Source: a virus
Lineage: Duplodnaviria > Heunggongvirae > Uroviricota > Caudoviricetes
IMG/VR virus record: IMGVR_UViG_3300042348_001111
Coordinates: 43,453-107,452 of that record
DNA length: 64,000 nt
Reading direction: 5' to 3' (one strand)
In this document: one piece after another, positions 2 to 40,123 of the stretch
Layout: every line of letters starts with the position of its first letter
Numbering within the stretch: the first letter of the stretch is position 1
Notes under the pieces: model-generated
What the model was told of the DNA's origin: nothing
Databases searched by the model: none
The model's input: the letters and a program-made list of their open reading frames with translations, nothing else
Program-made: the position numbers and the translations under genes

Positions 2-403
2 GTACTCATCCAGTGGTTTTTCATCATCAAAAGGAACCAGGACACCATCTTCAAAAAGTTTAGAAAATGTTTCTACCAGTCCGCTTTTGTCAATCTTTTT
101 TCGACCAGGTTTCTGTTTTGAACCAGGAACCTCATCGTCATCTTCTAGATCTGCATCTAACTCTGCAATAGCCGCTTGAGTTGTTGCTGCACTAGGTGTT
201 TTTTCTTTACCATCTTCGTTTCCATCACCTTCTTCTTCAAGAAAATTAAGATCTGCTGGAATATCTTTGGTAAAGAATCTTGGTTTTAAACTTTCGTCAT
301 TATCTGCTGTCACAACGCTTTCAGCCCCAGGCATTGGTAAAAAATCATCAAGGCTTTCAAGACTTACGCTGGATACAGATGTTTGTTGGTTGTTACTGTC
401 CAT
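2..403 (-). CDS. Partial CDS (N-terminal 134 aa, runs off the window start); acidic hypothetical protein, possibly a head scaffold or morphogenesis protein
   Basis: ATG at 403-401 on the minus strand with an open frame to position 2. The product is strongly acidic (D/E-rich). It sits immediately downstream of the portal gene on the same strand. Confidence 0.45.
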   Translation of the reverse strand, partial: MDSNNQQTSVSSVSLESLDDFLPMPGAESVVTADNDESLKPRFFTKDIPADLNFLEEEGDGNEDGKEKTPSAATTQAAIAELDADLEDDDEVPGSKQKPGRKKIDKSGLVETFSKLFEDGVLVPFDDEKPLDEY

Positions 404-16893: not shown

Positions 16894-16989
16894 AGTCAGG
16901 TGGCGGAATGGTAAACGCTCGCTTCAAGGTGCGGTCAGTCAACGAAATGTAAAACTGACTTGCAGGTTCGAATCCTGTCCTGACTACCA
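16894..16989 (+). tRNA. tRNA-Leu (type II, long variable arm), probable anticodon CAA; 3' CCA is encoded
   Basis: 7-bp acceptor stem AGTCAGG/CCTGACT. D-arm GTGGCGGAATGGTAAACGC is typical of tRNA-Leu. T-arm GCAGG-TTCGAAT-CCTGT, discriminator A, then CCA. The anticodon region reads TTCAAGG, but the anticodon stem is irregular. Confidence 0.7.
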
Positions 16990-18294: not shown

Positions 18295-18981
18295 ATGAAC
18301 AAACTCCCCCAAAATTGGCTCATTGAAGTAACCGAAGGAAACCGCGAAGAACTCAACCGTTGGAGGAAAAAGGTCGCTACCGAGTATCGTGACCACTTTG
18401 TTAGAGTAGGGTACACCTTGCTCTCAAAGCATAAAGACGATGGAAGTTATTACTACTCCAATAACGCTCAAGAACTTAGGAATGACGAAGACTACAACGA
18501 CTACCAAGAAATCACACTCGAACAATTCCGTCAAATTACAAACCCAAACCAAAAACTTATGATAAAATCAATTAAAATTTCCCGCGAACTGCTCAACAAT
18601 TATTACAATGCCGCTACCGCCGCACAACAGGAGTACCTTACGGAACACTTCAAGTTGGATGGGACAACTACCAATGAAGCGATTCGTGGGTTATATCAGT
18701 TGGCTTGTGACACTTGGAAGCCACGCATTAAAGACAACCACCCTGATTGCTTTGAAAATGAGAAACATTTTGATTTCAGCGCAATTTCTGAAGAATCGAT
18801 CGTAGCGCCCAAAGTTGCTAAAGCACTTGGACTAAACGAAGATTTTATTCAGGTTAGAAACGGCTCAAATCCTAAACTACGCCATCGTTCGTTCTACCTG
18901 TCAACAGATTACAATTGGGAATTGGTAAACGATAATGATGGAGTAACTCCCATAATGGTACTACTTCCAACGAAGAAGTAG
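18295..18981 (+). CDS. Hypothetical protein whose N-terminal domain (about 85 aa) also occurs twice in the MoxR ATPase gene
   Basis: Residues 1-85 (NWLIEVTEGNREELNRWRKKVATEY...GYTLLSKH.DDGSYYY...DY.EITLEQFRQITNPN) align with both N-terminal repeats of the 27478 gene. Confidence 0.55.
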   Translation: MNKLPQNWLIEVTEGNREELNRWRKKVATEYRDHFVRVGYTLLSKHKDDGSYYYSNNAQELRNDEDYNDYQEITLEQFRQITNPNQKLMIKSIKISRELLNNYYNAATAAQQEYLTEHFKLDGTTTNEAIRGLYQLACDTWKPRIKDNHPDCFENEKHFDFSAISEESIVAPKVAKALGLNEDFIQVRNGSNPKLRHRSFYLSTDYNWELVNDNDGVTPIMVLLPTKK

Positions 18982-26241: not shown

Positions 26242-26564
26242 GTGAATCTACTGCAAACAGTGAGGCCATCGTCAAGTACGGTGGTCTCACCAATGCTGAA
26301 CTATTACTGGTCTACTTTCGTTTTAAAAAGTACCTGGAAAATTTGGACAGCAATCTGAATGAACAAAAAATTTCTAAATCAATTGATACACCCTTAGGTA
26401 AAGGTGTTGTCATTCAAAAAGTTCCCGTAGAACATGTAGAGCGATTCAAAAAGACTGAATACTATAAGCTTACTAAGCTTGTGGTTGAAAAACTGCAACC
26501 TATTGCTGAGGTGATTCTAGAATGCGATGACTCTTTGCAATCTTTAGTTGATGAGTTACGGTAG
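26238..26564 (+). CDS. Hypothetical protein
   Basis: 108 aa with ATGA-style start overlap. Confidence 0.4.
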   Translation: MSESTANSEAIVKYGGLTNAELLLVYFRFKKYLENLDSNLNEQKISKSIDTPLGKGVVIQKVPVEHVERFKKTEYYKLTKLVVEKLQPIAEVILECDDSLQSLVDELR

Positions 26565-26871
26565 ACTTAGCAATCAAGTTGCCATGTCTGAGTATCTATC
26601 TTTAGAAGCAAAAGGTCTCTATGGAATTATTTGTTGCATGTGCGGTAGCAAAGATTATTGCTATCCATCTTTATTAAAACTGGCAAAGCTTTCAGGAAAA
26701 AGCAAATCTACAGTTCAACGCATTCTCAGAGAACTTTCTGACAAAGGCGTTATAACGCGTGGATTTAATACTACTCTGAACAAAACAATTACCGTTAATC
26801 TTTTAGACCCTAAAAAATCCAAATTAACCTATGAACAAGCCCACATCAATGTCATTAGTGGAGATTATTGA
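26551..26871 (+). CDS. Winged-HTH DNA-binding protein (putative transcription or replication regulator)
   Basis: SLLKLAKLSGKSKSTVQRILRELSDKGVI is a helix-turn-helix. The start could instead be the ATG at 26584. Confidence 0.45.
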   Translation: MSYGRLSNQVAMSEYLSLEAKGLYGIICCMCGSKDYCYPSLLKLAKLSGKSKSTVQRILRELSDKGVITRGFNTTLNKTITVNLLDPKKSKLTYEQAHINVISGDY

Positions 26872-27319: not shown

Positions 27320-27329
27320 GCATAGGGGG

Positions 27330-27470
27330 TAGTCACCTATGACCACCCCTCAAATGCGCGCCTTTTTCTTTTTCATTCTTCTTATTCCTTACTAGTCACC
27401 CATGACTAGGGGGTGTGGTCACCTATGACTACCCCCCTGGTCACTGGTGACCATCCCCTTGTAAAAATTT
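27330..27470. promoter_or_regulatory. Cluster of GC-rich palindromes built on GTCAC and GTGAC half-sites, upstream of the MoxR ATPase gene
   Basis: The cluster contains GGGGGTAGTCACCTATGACCACCCC, TAGTCACCCATGACTAGGGGG, GGTCACCTATGACTACCCCCC and GGTCACTGGTGACC within 140 bp. Confidence 0.45.
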
Positions 27471-27477
27471 ACTGTTT

Positions 27478-29298
27478 ATGTCAAACATTCATCCGGAAAA
27501 ATGGCTCATTGAAATTACTCAAGAGAACCAAGAAGAACTCGACCGTTGGAGACAACAAGTCGCCACCACGAATCTTTCAGCCACTCTTGCTGTCGGCTTC
27601 ACCTTGCTCTCAAGTCATCATCACGACGGCAGTCATTATTACTGCGCTAACGCAAGAAAAGTTAAGGGACTCGACTCTTACGCCGACTACCAAGAAATCA
27701 CACTCGTACAATTCCGTCAAATCACAAACCCAAAACCTATGAACACACTACCCACAAATTGGTACATTGAAGTAACTGAAGAGAACCAAGAAGAACTCGA
27801 CCGTTGGAGACAACAAGTCGCCACCGAGAATCTTTCAAACACTCTTGCTGTCGGCTACACCTTGCTCTCAAGTCATCATCACGACGGCAGTCATTATTAC
27901 TGCGCTAACGCAAGAAAAGTTAAGGGACTCGACTATTACGCCGACTACCAACCAATCACCATCGAACAATTCCGTCAAATCACTAACCCAAAACCTAACG
28001 AAAAAACAAAAATGATCCTACTACAAAGCTTTATCCAAGGTACCAGCTACCAGATTAAGACATTGCCTAAACAGGCATTTGAGAAAACTCTCACACGCAG
28101 CATTGAAGATCTGAAGATTACGACTTCTATTGCTGATTTTGCCAAATTTCCTCTGGAGACCATCTTCGTCAGTGACGGTTATGACTTTCCAGAAGAAGAC
28201 CACTTGCATGTTCGTAAAGAGAACATCATTGCGCTTTCTTTTGAAGGCAACCTTTTTCCTTTGTCCTCACTTGACAAAGAGCGCCTACAGAAAGTCTGTG
28301 ATTTTGCTATTGATTATTTTCTAGACAACCCTGACTATACAGTAGAATACGCCAAGAAGATGGCTGAACAAATGGCTTCTTATGGTTATGAGTATAACTG
28401 GGACGACAAAATTGCTCCCAAGCCTTCTGAAGCAGGAGCTGCACCTGGTGGTCCCAACATTCGCAGGACCATTGCTGCTAATTATCCTGTACCTAAAACA
28501 GAAGATGTGGGATTTCACATTGATCCAGACATCTGGTTTTTAATGTGTCGCAACGCACTGCGTGGTGAAAACACCTTACTTGTAGGGCCTACTGGTAGTG
28601 GTAAAACAGAAATTCTTTACCACCTGGCAACTGTTATGGCAAAAGAGCTGCACATCCAGGATATGGGTACTGTACAAGACGCACAAAGCGCTCTGTTAGG
28701 TGTACACCGTCTGAACAAAGAAGGTCACTCTATTTTTGAACAAGCTCCTTTTGTTTCTCACATCAAAAGCGGTGGTATTGTGCTGCTTGATGAGCTTAAC
28801 CGCTCTCCACTTGCAGCTAATAATATCTTATTTCCATGCTTGGACAAGCGACGCTACTTACCCGTAGACATCGCCTGTGAAGACGGTGAGCGCAGGATTG
28901 CGGTGCATGAAAACACTGTGTTCTTTGCTACTGCAAACCTGGGTTCAGAGTATTCTGGTACCCATAGCATTGACCGCGCCTTGCTTGATAGGTTCTTTCC
29001 TATAGAGCTGGGCTACCCCTCAGAGAAAGATGAGGTGAATGTACTAAAGCTACGCACCGGCGTAGATGAAAAGGCTGCCACTGCCATTGTGAAAGTCTCT
29101 AACGAGATCCGCAAGCAGTACAAAGAACAGGAACTATCTACTCCTGTGTCAGTTCGTCACACCTTGCAAGCTGCATCACTCATCTCTGATGGTTTTGAAG
29201 TAGACAAAGCACTGCTAGCTACGATTATGCCGCTGTTTGAAGACAGCATTGGTGTGAGTGAGCGCAGCAAGGTCTTGTCTATTGTTTCTGCGTTTTAA
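27478..29298 (+). CDS. MoxR-family AAA+ ATPase (CobS-like) with two tandem N-terminal repeats of an unknown 85-aa domain
   Basis: Walker A LLVGPTGSGKTE, Walker B IVLLDELNR, sensor FFATANLG, and an Arg in DRALLDRF. Two nearly identical N-terminal repeats (residues 6-92 and 96-180), each with W.IEVTEENQEELDRWRQQVAT and HHHDGSHYYCANARKVKGLD. Confidence 0.8.
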   Translation: MSNIHPEKWLIEITQENQEELDRWRQQVATTNLSATLAVGFTLLSSHHHDGSHYYCANARKVKGLDSYADYQEITLVQFRQITNPKPMNTLPTNWYIEVTEENQEELDRWRQQVATENLSNTLAVGYTLLSSHHHDGSHYYCANARKVKGLDYYADYQPITIEQFRQITNPKPNEKTKMILLQSFIQGTSYQIKTLPKQAFEKTLTRSIEDLKITTSIADFAKFPLETIFVSDGYDFPEEDHLHVRKENIIALSFEGNLFPLSSLDKERLQKVCDFAIDYFLDNPDYTVEYAKKMAEQMASYGYEYNWDDKIAPKPSEAGAAPGGPNIRRTIAANYPVPKTEDVGFHIDPDIWFLMCRNALRGENTLLVGPTGSGKTEILYHLATVMAKELHIQDMGTVQDAQSALLGVHRLNKEGHSIFEQAPFVSHIKSGGIVLLDELNRSPLAANNILFPCLDKRRYLPVDIACEDGERRIAVHENTVFFATANLGSEYSGTHSIDRALLDRFFPIELGYPSEKDEVNVLKLRTGVDEKAATAIVKVSNEIRKQYKEQELSTPVSVRHTLQAASLISDGFEVDKALLATIMPLFEDSIGVSERSKVLSIVSAF

Positions 29299-29412
29299 GC
29301 TGTAGGATCAGCGAGTTTGTGACAAAAGGGTTGTGGGTGACATTAGTGTCGCTCACACCCTGATGTCGCAAATGTTTATTATTTGTGAGACCAAACTTAA
29401 AACTAAAACACC

Positions 29413-31320
29413 ATGAGTAAACTGTCAAGAGACTGGTTTAACCGCAGGGCAGAAGATGCCTACACATTTGCTGATGACTCTAAAAGATTCTTCAGCTGGG
29501 ACAGAGGCAGAGATTCTTACTCTTCATTCTTTGTCCGCAATAACGATTCTTTACAAGTAGCTGCTAAGATGATTGGCTCCATGTTTAGGGTTATTGGTGT
29601 ACCTAAAAATTTTAAATACACCAACAATATAGAAAAATCTTCAGGAAGACATACAGTGCAAATACCACTGAGTATGTTGCGCGACGAAAAAGGAAACTAT
29701 CTGGACAAAGACACAGAGCTGTTAGATGCTTTTTACGGTGCTGCCATTCAAAACGCAGCTCTGGCAACAATGCAGACAACTTCTGAGTATAGTTATACAA
29801 TAAACTCAAGAGACACCTCAAAAAAATTAAATGTTAAGGATCTTTTGTTTAGTGTACTAAACACTGAGCGTATTGACAAAAAGCTTGCTGATCGTCTGCC
29901 AGGTTATCTCAAGTTTGTTCAAAAGTTTAAGAATCATCGTTACGCAAATGCACCGGTTATAGGTGAAGATGAACCTGCTCAAAAGCGTTTGATGGATCTT
30001 ATAGTAAAAATGTTACGCTATCCTGCTAATATTTCTGAAAGTGATCTTGAAAAATTTGAAAAGCCAGTAACAGCTATTGAACGTCTTTTGAAAAAGTATG
30101 GCGGCATACCTAACACAAGTTTAGGCTGCTCAGATATGGCTACTTCTTTGGCCAACATCATTATTAAATACGTTGAAGATGAAGAGCCACCTCCACCTGA
30201 AAAGAGTGGTGGAGAAGGAGAAGGTGAAGAAGAAAAAAGCGAAGAATCATCTTCTGGTGAAGAATCATCTTCTGGTGAAGAATCATCTTCTGATAAAAAG
30301 TCATCTTCTAAAAAGTCAAAACCAAAGCTGAGCAAATCAGAACTAGATGAAATAGCCAAAGAGATGATGAAGTCTTTGGTGAACCCTGAAGAAGGAAACA
30401 GTTCTGATTCAAAATTTATTTCTGAATTTGAGGATTTTACCGAAGACATGGCATCTAACGTAAGTCAAAATCTTAAATCTGAAAAATATAATGAAGAAGG
30501 TTTTGCTTCAAACAGTGCTGTAGTGTTCTTAAAAGCTGACACTAATGCTGCTTCTTACAAACACGCGTTACATAAAGTTGATAGTACTAAAGCTGCAGTG
30601 CTTCAAAAGCTTTTTGCAAGAAAAAGTAAAGATCAGGCTTTTGTAATGAAATCAATGCGTTCTGGCAGACTTGATACCAACAAAATTGCAGAAGCTGTTC
30701 AAAACGTTCCAACTATTTATGAAAGAATGGGACGTATCACTACAGACAAAATCTGTGTGGGTGTTTTGATTGATGAATCAGGTTCTATGGGCGGCAGTAA
30801 AATTGACAAAGCAAGACAAGCTGCTATATTTATCAATGAAGTCTTTAAAAACATACCTGATGTAGATTTGTACATGTATGGTCATACTGCGGATTCACCT
30901 AAACATGATGTCACCTACTTGCGTATTTATCGTGAGAAAGGTTATGTCACAGATCCTTTTTCTTTAGGATCTATTCAAGCAAGAAGCAATAACCGTGATG
31001 GTGATGCTATACTTGCTTTTGCCCAAAGAGTACGTAACAATACGCCTAACCAAGGCTTACTATTTGTAATTTCAGATGGTCAGCCTGCAGCTTCAGGTTA
31101 CACTGGCATGCCTGCTATTGAAGACACAAGAAAAAAAGTCAAAAAAGCGCAAGCTTTAGGTTTTCAAGTGATTCAAATTGCTATTGAAGAATCAGTCCCT
31201 TCATCTCAAATGTTTGACTACTTTATCAAGATGACTGACATCAAAAATCTACCTAATGACATGATCAAATACATGTCACGCAAAGTAGACAAACTTATCA
31301 AAGAACGCGTCATTCTTTAA
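29413..31320 (+). CDS. vWA-domain protein (CobT-like) with an acidic Ser/Glu-rich linker, partner of the MoxR ATPase
   Basis: The C-terminal MIDAS motif VLIDESGSMGG sits inside a vWA fold (...LLFVISDGQPAA...). The central E/S-rich low-complexity region contains the 18-nt unit GAAGAATCATCTTCTGGT repeated 3 times. Confidence 0.75.
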   Translation: MSKLSRDWFNRRAEDAYTFADDSKRFFSWDRGRDSYSSFFVRNNDSLQVAAKMIGSMFRVIGVPKNFKYTNNIEKSSGRHTVQIPLSMLRDEKGNYLDKDTELLDAFYGAAIQNAALATMQTTSEYSYTINSRDTSKKLNVKDLLFSVLNTERIDKKLADRLPGYLKFVQKFKNHRYANAPVIGEDEPAQKRLMDLIVKMLRYPANISESDLEKFEKPVTAIERLLKKYGGIPNTSLGCSDMATSLANIIIKYVEDEEPPPPEKSGGEGEGEEEKSEESSSGEESSSGEESSSDKKSSSKKSKPKLSKSELDEIAKEMMKSLVNPEEGNSSDSKFISEFEDFTEDMASNVSQNLKSEKYNEEGFASNSAVVFLKADTNAASYKHALHKVDSTKAAVLQKLFARKSKDQAFVMKSMRSGRLDTNKIAEAVQNVPTIYERMGRITTDKICVGVLIDESGSMGGSKIDKARQAAIFINEVFKNIPDVDLYMYGHTADSPKHDVTYLRIYREKGYVTDPFSLGSIQARSNNRDGDAILAFAQRVRNNTPNQGLLFVISDGQPAASGYTGMPAIEDTRKKVKKAQALGFQVIQIAIEESVPSSQMFDYFIKMTDIKNLPNDMIKYMSRKVDKLIKERVIL

Positions 31321-31332
31321 CAAAAACGAACA

Positions 31333-31368
31333 CCAGGTGCAGAATAACTTCTGCATCTGGGTTTGTTA
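31333..31368 (+). terminator. Terminator-like hairpin (CCAGGTGCAGAA...TTCTGCATCTGG + GTTTGTT)
   Basis: Seen in the sequence after the 31320 stop. Confidence 0.4.
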
Positions 31369-31614
31369 CCAATGCTTATGAATCAATTCAATAACATTTA
31401 CATCAAAATTTTTGTCTATTTGTTTGTCTTTGCACTTATCATAGAGCTATCACGCCTTGCGTTTTGGCTGATGAATCAAGACAACAGTATTGCAGTGTAC
31501 ATGGGTTTTATCATGGCCTTATCCCTTGTCATTGCACTGTCCACGATGATTGTGACAGTATTTCAAAAGGTTATCAACAATATCAAAAAACCAAAAAACA
31601 ATGAACCAAACTAA
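31363..31614 (+). CDS. Small 2-TM membrane protein (possible NfeD-like partner of the SPFH protein)
   Basis: 83 aa with two hydrophobic helices. Overlaps the SPFH gene start. Confidence 0.4.
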   Translation: MLPMLMNQFNNIYIKIFVYLFVFALIIELSRLAFWLMNQDNSIAVYMGFIMALSLVIALSTMIVTVFQKVINNIKKPKNNEPN

Positions 31615-32449
31615 AACAATTTTATTATCATGTGTTGCGGCACTACTGATGATGTTTTCTTTGTCTTGCTGCGAGCGTATTGATGCAGGACATGTGGGTG
31701 TTAAAGTAAATCTTTATGGAGATGGTAAAGGCGTAGACGATGCCACTGAAGTTACAGGATGGGTCTTTTACAATCCGTTCAGCACAAAGATTATTGAGTT
31801 TCCTACTTTTGTACAGCATAAAGAGTATAAAAACAACGGTGAAGATGCTGTTGATGAGTCATTTATTGTCAACTCAAAAGATGGTTCAGAGTTTCACGTC
31901 TCTCCAATAGTTAACTACTCCGTCAAGCGCGATCGTGTGCCTTATATTTTTGGTAAGTATCGCTTAACTCTTGACGCTATTGAAGAAGGATTTCTCAAAA
32001 CTGCTGTGTATGACGCTTTTCGTATTGTAGCCAACTCTTATACTGCTGATGAACTTATTTCTAATCGTGAACAGTTTGAGGTTAAAGTACGTAAAGTATT
32101 AGAGTCACAATTGTATCCTGAAGGATTTGTTTTGGCACAGTTTACTTCTAACCTTGTGTATCCAGAAACCTTTAAGAAAGCTATTGAAGCTAAGAACAAC
32201 GCAGTTCAAGCAGCACTTACTGCTGAAAACCAGGTTAAATCTGCTGAAGCACAAGCTAAAATTAAAGTTGCTACAGCTGAAGGTAACGCACAAGCACTTT
32301 TGACATCTGCTAAAGCAGAAGCAGAAGCTAATGCATTAAAACAACGCACTCTTACAGAAATGTTGCTTAAACAGCAATGGATTGAGCGTTGGGATGGTAA
32401 GCTGCCTGTATATGGGCAAGCACCTATGCTTTACAAACCTGTTAATTAA
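31601..32449 (+). CDS. SPFH/band-7 (prohibitin/HflKC-like) lipoprotein
   Basis: Signal peptide with LSCC. SPFH core followed by an Ala/Glu/Gln-rich coiled coil (AEAQAKIKVATAEGNAQALLTSAKAEAEANALKQ). Confidence 0.65.
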   Translation: MNQTKTILLSCVAALLMMFSLSCCERIDAGHVGVKVNLYGDGKGVDDATEVTGWVFYNPFSTKIIEFPTFVQHKEYKNNGEDAVDESFIVNSKDGSEFHVSPIVNYSVKRDRVPYIFGKYRLTLDAIEEGFLKTAVYDAFRIVANSYTADELISNREQFEVKVRKVLESQLYPEGFVLAQFTSNLVYPETFKKAIEAKNNAVQAALTAENQVKSAEAQAKIKVATAEGNAQALLTSAKAEAEANALKQRTLTEMLLKQQWIERWDGKLPVYGQAPMLYKPVN

Positions 32450-32715: not shown

Positions 32716-32792
32716 ACAATAAGCTCTGGTTGCGTTTGTGATTTCAAAAAGCTATTCTGTAGTCACATTTGTTACAATTTTTAACTGATCCT

Positions 32793-33218
32793 ATGAGAAA
32801 AATACACATAAAAACAACAAAACAGCTGGTGTACAATGCTGTTAAATGCAAAGCATGCTCAAAAATAATTTTCAGTCGTCATCGTCATGACTACAATACT
32901 TGTGGTTGTGCTAACAAGGCATCTGTTGATGGTGGCGTGAGCTATCAAAGCTACGGTGCTTTAGATTTTGACTTAATTGAGCCTTTGGCAGTGTATGCAG
33001 ATGAGCCTTTTGAAAGAGTCAGACAATACGCCACACGTGGGTCAAGAGGTAAGAGTGGCAAAGAACCACTTACCTGGTTAACGCTTGCTGAAATGACTGA
33101 TGAACACCTTGCAGCTGTTTTAGCGTTTGGCGGTGCTGAGTGGCACTTGAAACTTATTGCTAAAGAACTTCAATACAGACATGAAAACAACATATCCATT
33201 AAGGACCCTGAAGCCTGA
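32793..33218 (+). CDS. Hypothetical protein with a CxxC...C.C zinc motif
   Basis: CKACSK...CGC. The first ATG is at 32793. Confidence 0.4.
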   Translation: MRKIHIKTTKQLVYNAVKCKACSKIIFSRHRHDYNTCGCANKASVDGGVSYQSYGALDFDLIEPLAVYADEPFERVRQYATRGSRGKSGKEPLTWLTLAEMTDEHLAAVLAFGGAEWHLKLIAKELQYRHENNISIKDPEA

Positions 33219-39790: not shown

Positions 39791-40123
39791 ATGGAACAAT
39801 CAGAATCACCAGGACCTTTTGGTCTATTGCACATTGGCAGAGGCACATTTGGTGGAGCACTTGAAGCACTCAAGCAAGGTCACCGTGTTGCACGCAGTGG
39901 CTGGAACGGCAAGAACATGTTTTTGTTTTTGCTACCTGGAGGAATTATCCCCACAAAGGTTATTCATGACCCAGCGCTTCGCCAAGTTGTTGAAGAGCAG
40001 GTAGGCGGAGAAACTTTTGAAGCTCTTGGAAGCATTAGAATGTTTACTGCTGACAAAAAAATTCTTACCGGTTGGTTGGCATCTCAAACAGACATGCTAG
40101 CTGAAGACTGGAGTATACTTTAA
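39791..40123 (+). CDS. Hypothetical protein (SGWNGK motif, as in a small phage-associated domain family)
   Basis: 110 aa with LEALKQGHRVARSGWNGK. Confidence 0.4.
   Translation: MEQSESPGPFGLLHIGRGTFGGALEALKQGHRVARSGWNGKNMFLFLLPGGIIPTKVIHDPALRQVVEEQVGGETFEALGSIRMFTADKKILTGWLASQTDMLAEDWSIL

Follow-up and report, generated by a model that had tools for sequence, protein, structure and literature searches.

The systems closest to the locus studied here pair a MoxR-class AAA+ ATPase with a vWA partner. For NorQ/NorD our comparison set comprised Paracoccus denitrificans and Jhaorihella thermophila (PDB 9qh4-9qhg), and the NorD linker is functionally required (PMC13036017). For CobS/CobT it comprised Brucella melitensis CobSTN (PDB 9uka etc.), in which the solved CobT contains a disordered linker of ~90 residues (bioRxiv 10.64898/2026.07.21.739949). 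A "cobST" cluster is widespread in viruses, including cyanophages, Rhizobium and Gordonia phages and haloarchaeal viruses, and Liu et al. (2021) proposed a role for it in cobalamin supply (PMC8651126). Iyer et al. (2021) described a phage MoxR-vWA pair whose vWA protein bears an N-terminal metallopeptidase-like domain, and proposed a role in virion assembly, citing the precedent of Acidianus two-tailed virus (ATV; PMC7824862). Our literature searches turned up no experimental work on a phage-encoded pair of this MoxR/vWA, cobST-like kind.

Here, we analysed a 64-kb stretch (the window) of a ~121-kb phage, the host of which probably belongs to the gut Bacteroidota. Its gene pair belongs to the "cobST-like" two-gene cluster already known from tailed viruses. 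The single oddity is that a small orphan domain, present in two copies, was recently fused to the front of the ATPase.

The ATPase and its adaptor

Both open reading frames (Table 1) and their motifs (GPTGSGKT, VLLDELNR and FFATANLG in the ATPase, DESGSM in the second protein) were found as described in the original prediction, and profile and fold matches agree with its assignment of a MoxR-class AAA+ ATPase with a vWA/MIDAS partner of the CobS/CobT-NorQ/NorD kind. The ATPase falls inside the AAA_5 class (61.5 bits, curated cut-off 22) and also scores above the cut-off for CbbQ_C (39.6 bits, cut-off 20.6); the AAA_5 motif columns show at least 90% conservation across 37 family members. The normal length in the family is 428 aa. 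The family profile recovered NorQ with 95 bits (E 4e-26), CbbQ with 74 bits and CobS with 35 bits over a partial stretch, as well as midasin with 194 bits summed over its several AAA domains. No CobS model was matched in NCBIfam or Pfam, the best NCBIfam match being GvpN, and PHROG 249 ("porphyrin biosynthesis") was matched at E 2e-36. Judged by these profiles, the enzyme is a NorQ/CbbQ-type (CGN subfamily) MoxR AAA+ ATPase. Its region aa 179-365 had no Pfam match.

Table 1 Features of the locus and of its paralogous domain carrier (window positions)
Feature	Position	Strand	Basis
Paralogous N-domain carrier: one copy (aa 2-85) and unrelated 140-aa C-terminal domain	18295..18981	+	sequence comparison
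Four palindromic sites, GTCAC-N3-TGAC cores flanked by G/C runs	27325..27459	.	site count, conservation
Fusion gene, 606 aa: two orphan N-domains, then 428-aa CGN-type MoxR AAA+ ATPase (by profile)	27478..29298	+	ORF, profiles, relatives
Orphan N-domain copy 1, aa 1-86	27478..27735	+	TRF, in-register comparison
Orphan N-domain copy 2, aa 87-172, own initial Met (P-M-N-T-L-P)	27736..27993	+	in-register comparison
Junction: former A-rich 5' leader in frame as PNEKTK, then Met179	27994..28014	+	relatives' loci
ATPase family-specific N-terminal region, aa 179-365	28012..28572	+	conserved across 428-aa family
AAA_5 large subdomain, aa 366-506	28573..28995	+	profile, motifs
Walker A GPTGSGKT, aa 370-377	28585-28608	+	motif
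Walker B VLLDELNR, aa 435-442	28780-28803	+	motif
Sensor-1 region FFATANLG, aa 482-489	28921-28944	+	motif
DRALLDRF, Arg-finger region	28972-28995	+	motif
CbbQ/NirQ/NorQ C-terminal lid, aa 519-586	29032..29235	+	profile, conservation
SVRHTL, sensor-2 region inside lid	29149-29166	+	motif
CobT/NorD-type vWA adaptor gene, 635 aa	29413..31320	+	ORF, profiles, fold, conservation
Adaptor N-domain, aa 1-256	29413..30180	+	structure model, pLDDT mostly 75-93
Acidic linker, aa 257-345; 22 E, 22 S, net charge -15	30181..30447	+	alignment, model
18-nt tandem repeat (EESSSG units), 3.8 copies, inside linker	30241..30309	+	TRF
Most conserved adaptor stretch, aa 393-438, predicted finger	30589..30726	+	alignment, many invariant columns
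vWA domain, aa 445-628	30745..31296	+	profile, fold match
MIDAS D454, S456, S458 (DESGSM, aa 454-459)	30772-30789	+	motif

The second protein is a CobT/NorD-type adaptor. Its N-domain is helical and leads into a disordered acidic linker, which is followed by a conserved finger/shaft and then the vWA domain. It scored above the curated cut-offs for VWA (30.5 bits, cut-off 23.8) and CobT_C (26.7 bits, cut-off 21), and by fold it came closest to the vWA domain of NorD as seen in NorQD complexes (E 5e-8) and to the MIDAS domain of MDN1/Rea1. The family profile matched the solved CobT at E 1e-7, spanning linker, shaft and MIDAS, while the CobT equivalog TIGR01651 gave 23 bits vs a cut-off of 759, and PHROG 1576 (unknown function) was matched much better than the CobT PHROG. 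The MIDAS is complete (D454, S456, S458, T492, D555), with all five residues invariant in 37 sequences. The N-domain had no Pfam match; its model consists of helix alpha1, a small beta-sheet and eight helices, resembling CobT_N in the order of secondary-structure elements alone. The HExxH motif is absent from its sequence, making peptidolytic processing unlikely. The stretch aa 393-438 aligns with the shaft-containing CobT region (residues ~360-415) and is predicted to be the finger that enters the ATPase pore; in the monomer model pLDDT is <50 at aa 407-442.

The E/S-rich acidic linker had been put forward as a departure from known versions, which did not hold: an acidic, length-variable linker is present in 37 of 37 family members, and the acidic sequence of the CobT linker aligns with it. 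Its first part is predicted to be disordered. Only the repeat within it (GAAGAATCATCTTCTGGT) is local. This is a polymorphic slippage repeat and the linker's sole local feature; a 99.6%-identical genome (L006) has one unit fewer, giving an adaptor of 629 vs 635 aa.

An orphan domain at the front of the ATPase

The N-terminal extension consists, as predicted, of two tandem units of 258 nt or 86 aa (TRF: period 258, 1.9 copies, 93% matches), which in register from the ORF start are identical at 227 of 258 nt and 70 of 86 aa. That the domain is unrecognised and unusual was likewise confirmed: neither a Pfam family nor a structural relative was found for its confident structure model, and normal family members lack it. 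It has 218 cluster representatives among 1.84 billion proteins and is normally an N-terminal module of larger proteins, with copy numbers from 1 to 5 and promiscuous fusion partners; one such protein (P0256) is a second, independent fusion, to a distant AAA_5 ATPase. Its commonest context is the C-terminal domain of ORF 18295, shared by 38 of 150 domain-bearing proteins. This ORF had been called a separate homolog; it shares the ~85-aa N-domain at 50-62% identity, but has no homology to the ATPase.

Met179 corresponds to the codon at which the 428-aa ATPase (MILLQSF...) natively starts. In three relatives (L008, L009, L014) an unrelated 197-aa ORF fills the same slot in front of the same leader, and in L009 and L014 the junction spacer comes after the stop codon of this ORF. 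One relative (P0002/L002) has a single copy of the domain and L006 has two, the only two amino-acid differences from L006 (H48R, H53C) lying in copy 1. The 86-aa domain was acquired in frame at this variable slot, ahead of the retained Met179, and then duplicated; the 172-aa extension is a recent, lineage-specific add-on. Presumably, an orphan-domain ORF landed between the palindrome cluster and the ATPase start; loss of its stop codon would have led to in-frame read-through of the old leader into Met179, and duplication would have followed.

Genomic setting and possible functions

The pair is strictly conserved across a large family of phage contigs of 86–130 kb, and all relatives inspected, down to an ATPase identity of 53%, have its two genes side by side. 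Both belong to the conserved gene core of this phage group. The window encodes a DNA polymerase, helicases, a primase, a class I ribonucleotide reductase (NrdAB) and a dUTPase, and the pair sits in this early/replication module on the + strand; portal and terminase genes lie ~22 kb away on the opposite strand. In the closest isolate, Bacteroides phage BS162P1 (43-44% identity, both genes annotated "hypothetical protein"), the pair likewise follows the DNA polymerase gene at a distance of a few genes. A Tad2-like anti-Thoeris gene is located in the early region, ~8.5 kb downstream of the pair.

The palindrome-rich, operator-like region noted upstream is real and conserved (L002, L006, L009, L014-L016). 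Four copies of GTCACNNNTGAC lie within 27332-27451, against only a single one in the rest of the 64 kb (0.46 expected; 0 of 100 shuffles reached 6 matches), and a 45-nt pyrimidine-rich tract follows the first site. The region is not dedicated to the ATPase, however, since in the closest relatives the palindromes precede the unrelated 197-aa gene. A nearby HTH_36 protein matches replication-initiator families, and the sites may therefore be origin iterons; the cluster may be either these or an operator.

Taking family assignments, domain architecture, conservation, slot replacement and evolutionary rates as observed, we think it fairly probable that the pair is a two-component AAA+ remodelling machine with a replication-phase client and a recent N-domain add-on. 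We infer that the ATPase forms a hexameric ring, that the adaptor finger inserts into its pore and that the adaptor N-domain docks on the ATPase lid. In the way shown for NorQD and CobST, the MIDAS would grip an acidic residue of the client protein, and ATP-driven rotation would stretch the acidic linker and remodel the client. Our best guess for the client is a phage or host protein complex that the replication phase requires, which would be activated or metal-loaded; the position of the genes in the early module is weak evidence for the machine's timing and target.

The dedicated phage function suggested in the original prediction, virion maturation or host interference, is speculative. We do not think that the pair is a cobalt chelatase or a virion chaperone. 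A true CobS/CobT auxiliary metabolic pair, hijacking host CobN to raise cobalamin supply as in the proposal of Liu et al., would fit the solved CobT as best sequence match of the adaptor family profile, the CobT_C score, the PHROG 249 match and the size and three-part architecture of the adaptor. This is nevertheless very unlikely: the ATPase resembles NorQ far more than CobS, TIGR01651 scored far below its cut-off, neither the window nor any inspected locus showed a CobN-like gene, and the class I reductase is B12-independent. In addition, corrinoid-making Bacteroidota use an anaerobic CbiK-type route. HmuS, a CobN-family protein of Bacteroidota, works without ATP (PMC12583661). Virion assembly, in the manner of the ATV tail-development pair or the pair of T4-like jumbo phages, would accord with the proposal of Iyer et al. 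and with the overall layout that the adaptor shares with their vWA protein, yet the location among early, replication and nucleotide-metabolism genes, away from portal and terminase and likewise in BS162P1, and the lack of HExxH make it improbable.

Two further explanations concern the N-domain. It might be functionless in the ATPase, the working enzyme being the 428 aa from Met179 and the repeats a moron product or neutral read-through. The native start and A-rich leader are retained unchanged, so the fusion might account for little of the protein made or be of no relevance; the slot is variable, nearly all family members lack the domain, and dN/dS between the two copies is ~0.9 (31 differences), so that one copy could be drifting. 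In other proteins too, Met just after a unit is strongly enriched (68 of 113 vs 21.5% expected), which fits an origin of the units as mini-genes. We consider this explanation unlikely, because three genomes differing by ~10% in DNA keep the frame open across the junction, the domain is under net purifying selection between these genomes (dN/dS 0.47-0.48 vs 0.084 for the ATPase core, i.e., ~6x faster evolution), and it was fused independently in P0256 and is normally an N-terminal module. The elevated rate, variable copy number and promiscuous partners, together with the early-region location and the Tad2-like gene, could instead point to a host-takeover or counter-defence device in which the pair, or at least the N-domain, remodels or sequesters a host complex. 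This is rather improbable, as a PADLOC search gave no meaningful match (best 18.9 bits) and the ATPase and vWA cores are strongly conserved core genes (dN/dS 0.05-0.18), unlike typical counter-defence genes. Within the remodelling machine that we favour, the N-domains probably serve on the ring as a fast-evolving module for binding or targeting, and internal initiation at Met179 may still yield the unfused 428-aa isoform.

Comparison with known remodelling systems

ATV p618/p892 and the jumbo-phage pair resemble our pair, by description, as virus-encoded MoxR ATPases with a vWA partner, which in jumbo phages bears the metallopeptidase-like N-terminal domain (PMC7824862); they differ in that the pair here lies in a replication module and its adaptor N-domain has no HExxH motif. 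The Rubisco activase CbbQ/CbbO and midasin (Rea1/MDN1) share the AAA_5 clade and the principle of a finger or MIDAS loop in the pore, and MIDAS domains of the latter were among the top adaptor fold matches, but their clients are others (Rubisco, pre-60S factors) and midasin is a single giant polypeptide. The viral "cobST"/PHROG 249 cluster likewise places an AAA+ gene next to a vWA gene in tailed viruses (PMC8651126), and tblastn recovered cyanophage, Rhizobium-phage, Gordonia-phage and HHTV-2 homologues at 25-34% identity; the present pair is a distinct sub-family with the orphan N-domain fusion and an adaptor preferring PHROG 1576. From CobSTN the present pair differs in an ATPase unlike CobS, a score far below the CobT equivalog cut-off, the lack of any CobN seen and a window reductase that is independent of B12; CobT itself is alike in length (637 vs 635 aa), helical N-domain, disordered acidic linker of ~90 aa, shaft just before the vWA beta1 strand and DxSGSM MIDAS. 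Compared with NorQ/NorD, the phage pair has no nitric oxide reductase client, ~185 extra N-terminal ATPase residues as well as two orphan domains, and an adaptor whose sequence similarity to NorD is confined to part of the vWA domain (27 bits). Even so, of the solved single-domain proteins NorQ matches the ATPase best (AAA_5 and CbbQ_C lid), the adaptor has its closest fold counterpart in the vWA domain of NorD, and both adaptors combine an N-domain, a long unresolved linker (essential in NorD), a finger and a vWA/MIDAS domain.

A MoxR ATPase and its vWA partner

The two adjacent plus-strand ORFs of the pair, encoding an ATPase of 606 aa and a vWA protein of 635 aa (here called the adaptor), lie exactly where the original prediction had placed them, and all motifs quoted there were found. 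The assignment of the first protein to the MoxR-class AAA+ ATPases is borne out by Pfam matches to AAA_5 (PF07728; 61.5 bits vs cut-off 22) and to the CbbQ/NirQ/NorQ lid (PF08406; 39.6 bits vs cut-off 20.6). GPTGSGKT and LLDELNR are its Walker A and Walker B motifs and, by analogy, TAN, DRALLDRF and SVRHTL probably correspond to sensor-1, the Arg-finger and sensor-2, respectively; all five fall in columns conserved at 90% or more among 37 family members. When a family profile built from 37 members was scored against solved proteins, NorQ reached 95 bits (E 4e-26), CbbQ 74 bits (E about 1e-19) and CobS, in a partial alignment, 35 bits (E 9e-8). The sequence-closest solved relatives are midasin AAA domains, then NorQ, then CbbQ, the latter two being the best single-domain PDB matches. 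The top NCBIfam match is GvpN, far under its cut-off, and no CobS model was among the Pfam and NCBIfam matches. Because the AAA_5 and lid matches coincide with a NorQ score far above that of CobS and with the lack of a matching CobS model, the protein is a MoxR ATPase of the CGN (CbbQ/GvpN/NorQ) subfamily and not CobS. PHROG 249, which is labelled 'porphyrin biosynthesis' and holds the cyanophage 'CobS', matches it at 2e-36. Membership in the BchI/BchD-ChlI/ChlD or RavA/ViaA systems was rejected, since the Pfam score for Mg_chelatase (PF01078) is 14.1 bits, below the cut-off of 20.3, and no RavA-type matches were obtained in Pfam, NCBIfam or the PDB sequence comparison.

The vWA fold and MIDAS site claimed for the adaptor hold as well. 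Its matches to VWA (PF00092; 30.5 bits vs cut-off 23.8) and CobT_C (PF11775; 26.7 bits vs cut-off 21) pass, and D454, S456, S458, T492 and D555 are invariant in 37 homologues, T492 and D555 being counted as MIDAS residues by their position in the fold. We modelled the structure with AlphaFold2 from the 37-homologue alignment (mean pLDDT 71; segments in the table). In a Foldseek search of the PDB, the model returned 36 matches at E <=1e-3, essentially all of them vWA/MIDAS domains, with the NorD vWA domain of NorQD complexes ranked first (E 5e-8) and MDN1/Rea1 MIDAS domains next. The best sequence match of the family profile is the solved CobT 9uka_G (E 1e-7), whose residues 234-459 align with profile positions 259-478; this alignment spans the acidic linker, the shaft-containing segment and the DxSGSM site, and conservation within the adaptor is highest in the part aligned with the shaft-containing segment (aa 393-438). 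The predicted N-domain would fit the published description of CobT_N in the order of its secondary-structure elements only. Because this domain had no sequence match in profile searches and lacks the HExxH motif, and because the CobT equivalog TIGR01651 is widely missed (23.1 bits vs cut-off 759), we file the adaptor as CobT/NorD-type and not as CobT.

The acidic linker had been considered a departure from known versions of the system, a view that we abandon: an acidic Gly/Ser-rich linker of varying length occupies the same position in 37 of 37 family members, and that of CobT is equally acidic. In the window, adaptor residues 257-345 comprise 22 Glu and 22 Ser with a net charge of -15. The triplicated 18-nt unit described earlier is real (EESSSG, 3.8 copies by Tandem Repeats Finder) and constitutes the only local feature of the linker. 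Its copy number is polymorphic through slippage within a disordered segment, since the adaptor of the near-identical relative L006 is one unit shorter (629 vs 635 aa) at 99.55% identity overall. A minus-strand ORF in this region was rejected as a gene and is read as a by-product, because its sequence is antisense to the part of the adaptor gene that encodes the acidic linker, a region conserved in 37 homologues.

Coordinates of features in the window and in contig loci of relatives (L003, L007, L009, L014); aa, residues of the named protein
Feature	Position	Strand	Remark
Portal and large terminase genes	0.5-5.5 kb	-	
Helicases, primase, exonuclease, DNA polymerase, class I ribonucleotide reductase NrdAB		+	long block
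dUTPase gene			in window
tRNA-like gene	16894-16989	+	96 nt
ORF 18295	18295-18981	+	orphan-domain protein
HTH_36 protein	26548-26871	+	two genes upstream
Palindrome cluster	27325-27459		
Four GTCAC-N3-TGAC sites	27332-27451		
ATPase	27478-29298	+	606 aa
ATPase, AAA_5	aa 366-506		PF07728
ATPase, lid	aa 519-586		PF08406
258-nt tandem unit	27507-27997		1.9 copies
Met codons after orphan-domain units	27739, 28012		
Adaptor	29413-31320	+	635 aa
Adaptor, N-domain	aa about 46-252		helical, confident (AlphaFold2)
Adaptor, disordered segment	aa 257-301		AlphaFold2
Adaptor, helices and one strand	up to aa 404		AlphaFold2
Adaptor, low-confidence segment	aa 407-442		AlphaFold2
Adaptor, vWA fold	aa 445-628		confident (AlphaFold2)
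Antisense ORF	30018-30449	-	rejected as gene
18-nt repeat	30241-30309		3.8 copies
Membrane protein	31363-31614	+	83 aa
SPFH/Band_7 lipoprotein-like protein	31601-32449	+	PHROG 200 'lipoprotein'
DUF7695 protein	32769-33218	+	
Tad2-like protein	39791-40123	+	110 aa
Tyrosine integrase	L003 1-1014		~6 kb upstream of pair
AAA_5 ATPase P0256 and DUF7192-domain gene after it	L007 2441-4566		P0256, 450 aa; second fusion
197-aa slot ORF	L009 3213-3806		
197-aa slot ORF	L014 2395-2988		

Relatives and genomic setting of the pair

The window comes from a tailed phage. The metagenomic contig L006 (121,207 bp) is 99.55% identical across the region, and the window therefore represents about half of a ~121-kb genome. 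No near-identical DNA was found among GenBank phages; the closest isolate, Bacteroides phage BS162P1, is related at the protein level only (43-44% identity), and both of its genes for the pair are annotated 'hypothetical protein'. A host search in the genome collection matched only four short MAG contigs with inconsistent taxon labels. The search with the ATPase yielded 790 relatives, nearly all of 424-432 aa and with 50-95% identity, many of them located on contigs of 86-130 kb, and that with the adaptor yielded 330, which measure about 612-655 aa. The ATPase and adaptor genes adjoin each other in all loci inspected, down to 53% ATPase identity, usually preceded by a small HTH_36 protein and a ~160-aa protein. 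The pair belongs to the known viral MoxR-vWA kind, and its source is a large unannotated gut-type phage family.

Directly 3' of the pair follow an 83-aa membrane protein and an SPFH/Band_7 lipoprotein-like protein. Both were rejected as parts of the system because they adjoin the pair only in close relatives; in L003 they are encoded at another place, and those parts of L004 and L005 that were inspected lack them. Membership in a known anti-phage defence system was rejected too, as nothing meaningful came from PADLOC, in which the best model for the ATPase was DolB (18.9 bits, E 2e-4, no single stretch passing alone) and the adaptor had no match.

Several further genes deserve mention. The early plus-strand block that holds the pair also encodes a protein that matches the Tad2-like domain (Thoeris anti-defence 2) strongly, at 78.7 bits vs cut-off 25. 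A tyrosine integrase was seen upstream of the pair in L003 (129.8-kb contig, 54% ATPase identity), and part of the phage group may therefore be temperate. The 96-nt tRNA-like gene scores 41 bits against the Rfam tRNA model, and ARAGORN assigns it no amino acid and a four-base anticodon, 'caag'; the gene may represent a tRNA of the frameshift-suppressor type, one with an intron, or a degenerate one.

The orphan domain at the ATPase N-terminus

The two-copy N-terminal extension of the ATPase, singled out earlier as unusual, was confirmed as such. Tandem Repeats Finder reported a 258-nt unit with 93% matches, and the two 86-residue copies of the encoded domain are identical at 70 of 86 residues in register; normal family members begin with MILLQSF at the position of Met179 in the window. 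Two copies are present in the window and in L006, the ATPases of which differ by two residues only (H48R and H53C, both in copy 1), and one copy in P0002 (locus L002), a relative at 90% identity. The closest 428-aa relatives (L008, L009 and L014; 95-97% identity) possess the palindrome cluster and leader as in the window; their slot between the cluster and the ATPase start holds an unrelated 197-aa ORF, which ends in a stop codon and is separated from the ATPase ATG by an A-rich spacer. This slot ORF has no Pfam or PHROG match and no homologue in the window. In L015 and L016, the same core segment was matched and the same palindromes are present. This site seems to be a hot spot at which genes are replaced. 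Domain units without a stop codon fill the slot in the window, and a near-identical spacer is translated as PNEKTK into Met179. Because the units read through the spacer in a variable slot, the extension is a small upstream gene captured in frame and later duplicated in tandem. This is a clear, datable case of how phages build multidomain proteins, with a small upstream gene reading through into a conserved enzyme.

Between the window and L002, dN/dS was 0.47-0.48 for the N-domain, 0.084 for the ATPase core and 0.046 for the AAA module, and 0.91 between copy 1 and copy 2, all based on small counts.

The palindromes upstream had been interpreted as an operator-like region tied to a regulated function of the pair. 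Their clustering is real and conserved: GTCAC-N3-TGAC occurs four times within the cluster and once in the remaining window (0.46 expected), and the cluster is kept in L002, L006, L009 and L014-L016, with a single site left in L005. It is not specific to the ATPase, since it heads the transcription unit whichever gene fills the slot. The HTH_36 protein encoded two genes upstream matches phage replication-initiator and DnaD-like PHROG families, and a 45-nt pyrimidine-rich tract lies between the first palindrome and the other three; because of these two features, a replication origin with iterons is as plausible as an operator. The HTH_36 protein, the four palindromes and the tract could together mark the replication origin of the phage.

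A word-indexed search with the 89-aa domain returned one protein. It understated the family, as an exhaustive HMM search of 1.84 billion representatives gave 218 proteins with the orphan domain at E <=1e-3. These carry one to five tandem units, the first of which begins no more than 30 residues from the N-terminus in 70 of 150 listed proteins, and further fusion partners are MIB_HERC2, DUF7666, a PD-(D/E)XK nuclease and an AAA_5 ATPase, P0256, which is just 24% identical to that of the window. The last constitutes a second, independent fusion to a distant AAA_5 ATPase; the next gene encodes a DUF7192 domain and no recognisable vWA, with the contig end falling inside the gene. ORF 18295 of the window, which has only the orphan domain in common with the ATPase, belongs to a family (P0112, P0115, P0116, P0242-P0250) with one to five tandem domains before a conserved ~140-aa C-terminal domain that has no Pfam or PHROG match; its copy number varies among related phages. 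The DUF7695 protein shows a weak, local likeness to the His/Asp-rich core of the orphan domain (tblastn E 0.015), which is probably due to chance.

In 68 of 113 proteins a Met follows the last unit within 14 residues (21.5% expected), which fits repeated in-frame capture. Internal units are also Met-initiated in close relatives and in the window. The units may be former mini-genes fused in frame, and the Met residues at the junctions could be nested starts producing isoforms. We offer the following as a speculation that we hold to be unlikely: in the orphan domain, MoxR-type rings would have a new portable module that recruits clients or serves regulation. Two distant phage AAA_5 ATPases would have acquired it independently, and copy number (one to five) together with rapid sequence change would tune it, so that one conserved motor can be re-aimed as its host or phage targets change. 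At unit boundaries, nested starts might add isoforms with differing module numbers.

Possible clients and known MoxR-vWA systems

By analogy with NorQD and CobST, the ATPase would form a hexamer into the pore of which the conserved finger of the adaptor inserts, with the adaptor N-domain docked on the lid and the MIDAS gripping an acidic residue of the client. Stepwise ATP hydrolysis would turn the vWA domain and stretch the linker, so that the client is opened for cofactor insertion or a bound factor is released. Such a ring would bear the captured N-domains in up to twelve copies, as a binding module that evolves fast, and mixed rings would be possible if Met179 also serves as a start.

The pair is located in the replication module, and both cores are under strong purifying selection. 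We tentatively regard as its client a replication-phase phage or host (metallo)protein complex, a real possibility short of a firm expectation. Two other roles have been put forward for viral pairs. Iyer et al. (2021; PMC7824862) reported a MoxR-vWA pair from jumbo phages, for which they proposed a role in virion assembly with reference to the tail-development chaperones of ATV; for the present pair this seems unlikely to us, and we judge interference with the host to be improbable, too. Liu et al. (2021; PMC8651126) reported adjacent cobS/cobT-like genes in bacterial and archaeal tailed viruses and suggested that the host CobN is hijacked. Cobalt chelation with a host CobN appears quite improbable here: the ATPase scores 35 bits with CobS against 95 with NorQ, and neither the window nor the inspected loci of relatives showed a CobN-like gene. 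HmuS, a haem de-chelatase of the CobN family in Bacteroidota, was set aside as a client, as it is membrane-anchored and ATP-independent (PMC12583661). In the literature, we found neither a phage MoxR/vWA pair with a demonstrated client nor an experimental test of either proposal. For a replication-phase complex or any other client, the captured fast-evolving domain offers a natural handle in the search, with genomes of zero, one and two copies at hand.

What is new here is the captured orphan domain; the linker is of the ordinary sort. As an evolutionary event the fusion is neat and well documented, and it can be used as an experimental handle; it is not a new type of system, and even if the pair itself is ordinary, the analysis provides a corrected annotation for a large gut-phage gene family and one new domain family to curate.

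In solved CobT (637 aa), an M48C-peptidase-like N-domain of one helix, a three-stranded sheet and eight helices is followed by a disordered linker of ~90 residues, a shaft entering the CobS pore and the vWA domain (bioRxiv 10.64898/2026.07.21.739949). NorQD likewise works in a finger-in-pore mode, and the NorD linker is required for function (2026; PMC13036017). Viral pairs of the MoxR/vWA ('cobST-like') kind occur widely, count among the core genes of several phage groups and are routinely labelled cobalamin or porphyrin genes. This label is unsafe in the present case, because the window, the sequenced half of the phage, contains no pointers to B12 and because of the mixed make-up of the pair: its adaptor is like CobT in length, in the order of its parts and, as modelled, in the order of secondary-structure elements of its N-domain, whereas its motor differs from CobS in being NorQ-like.
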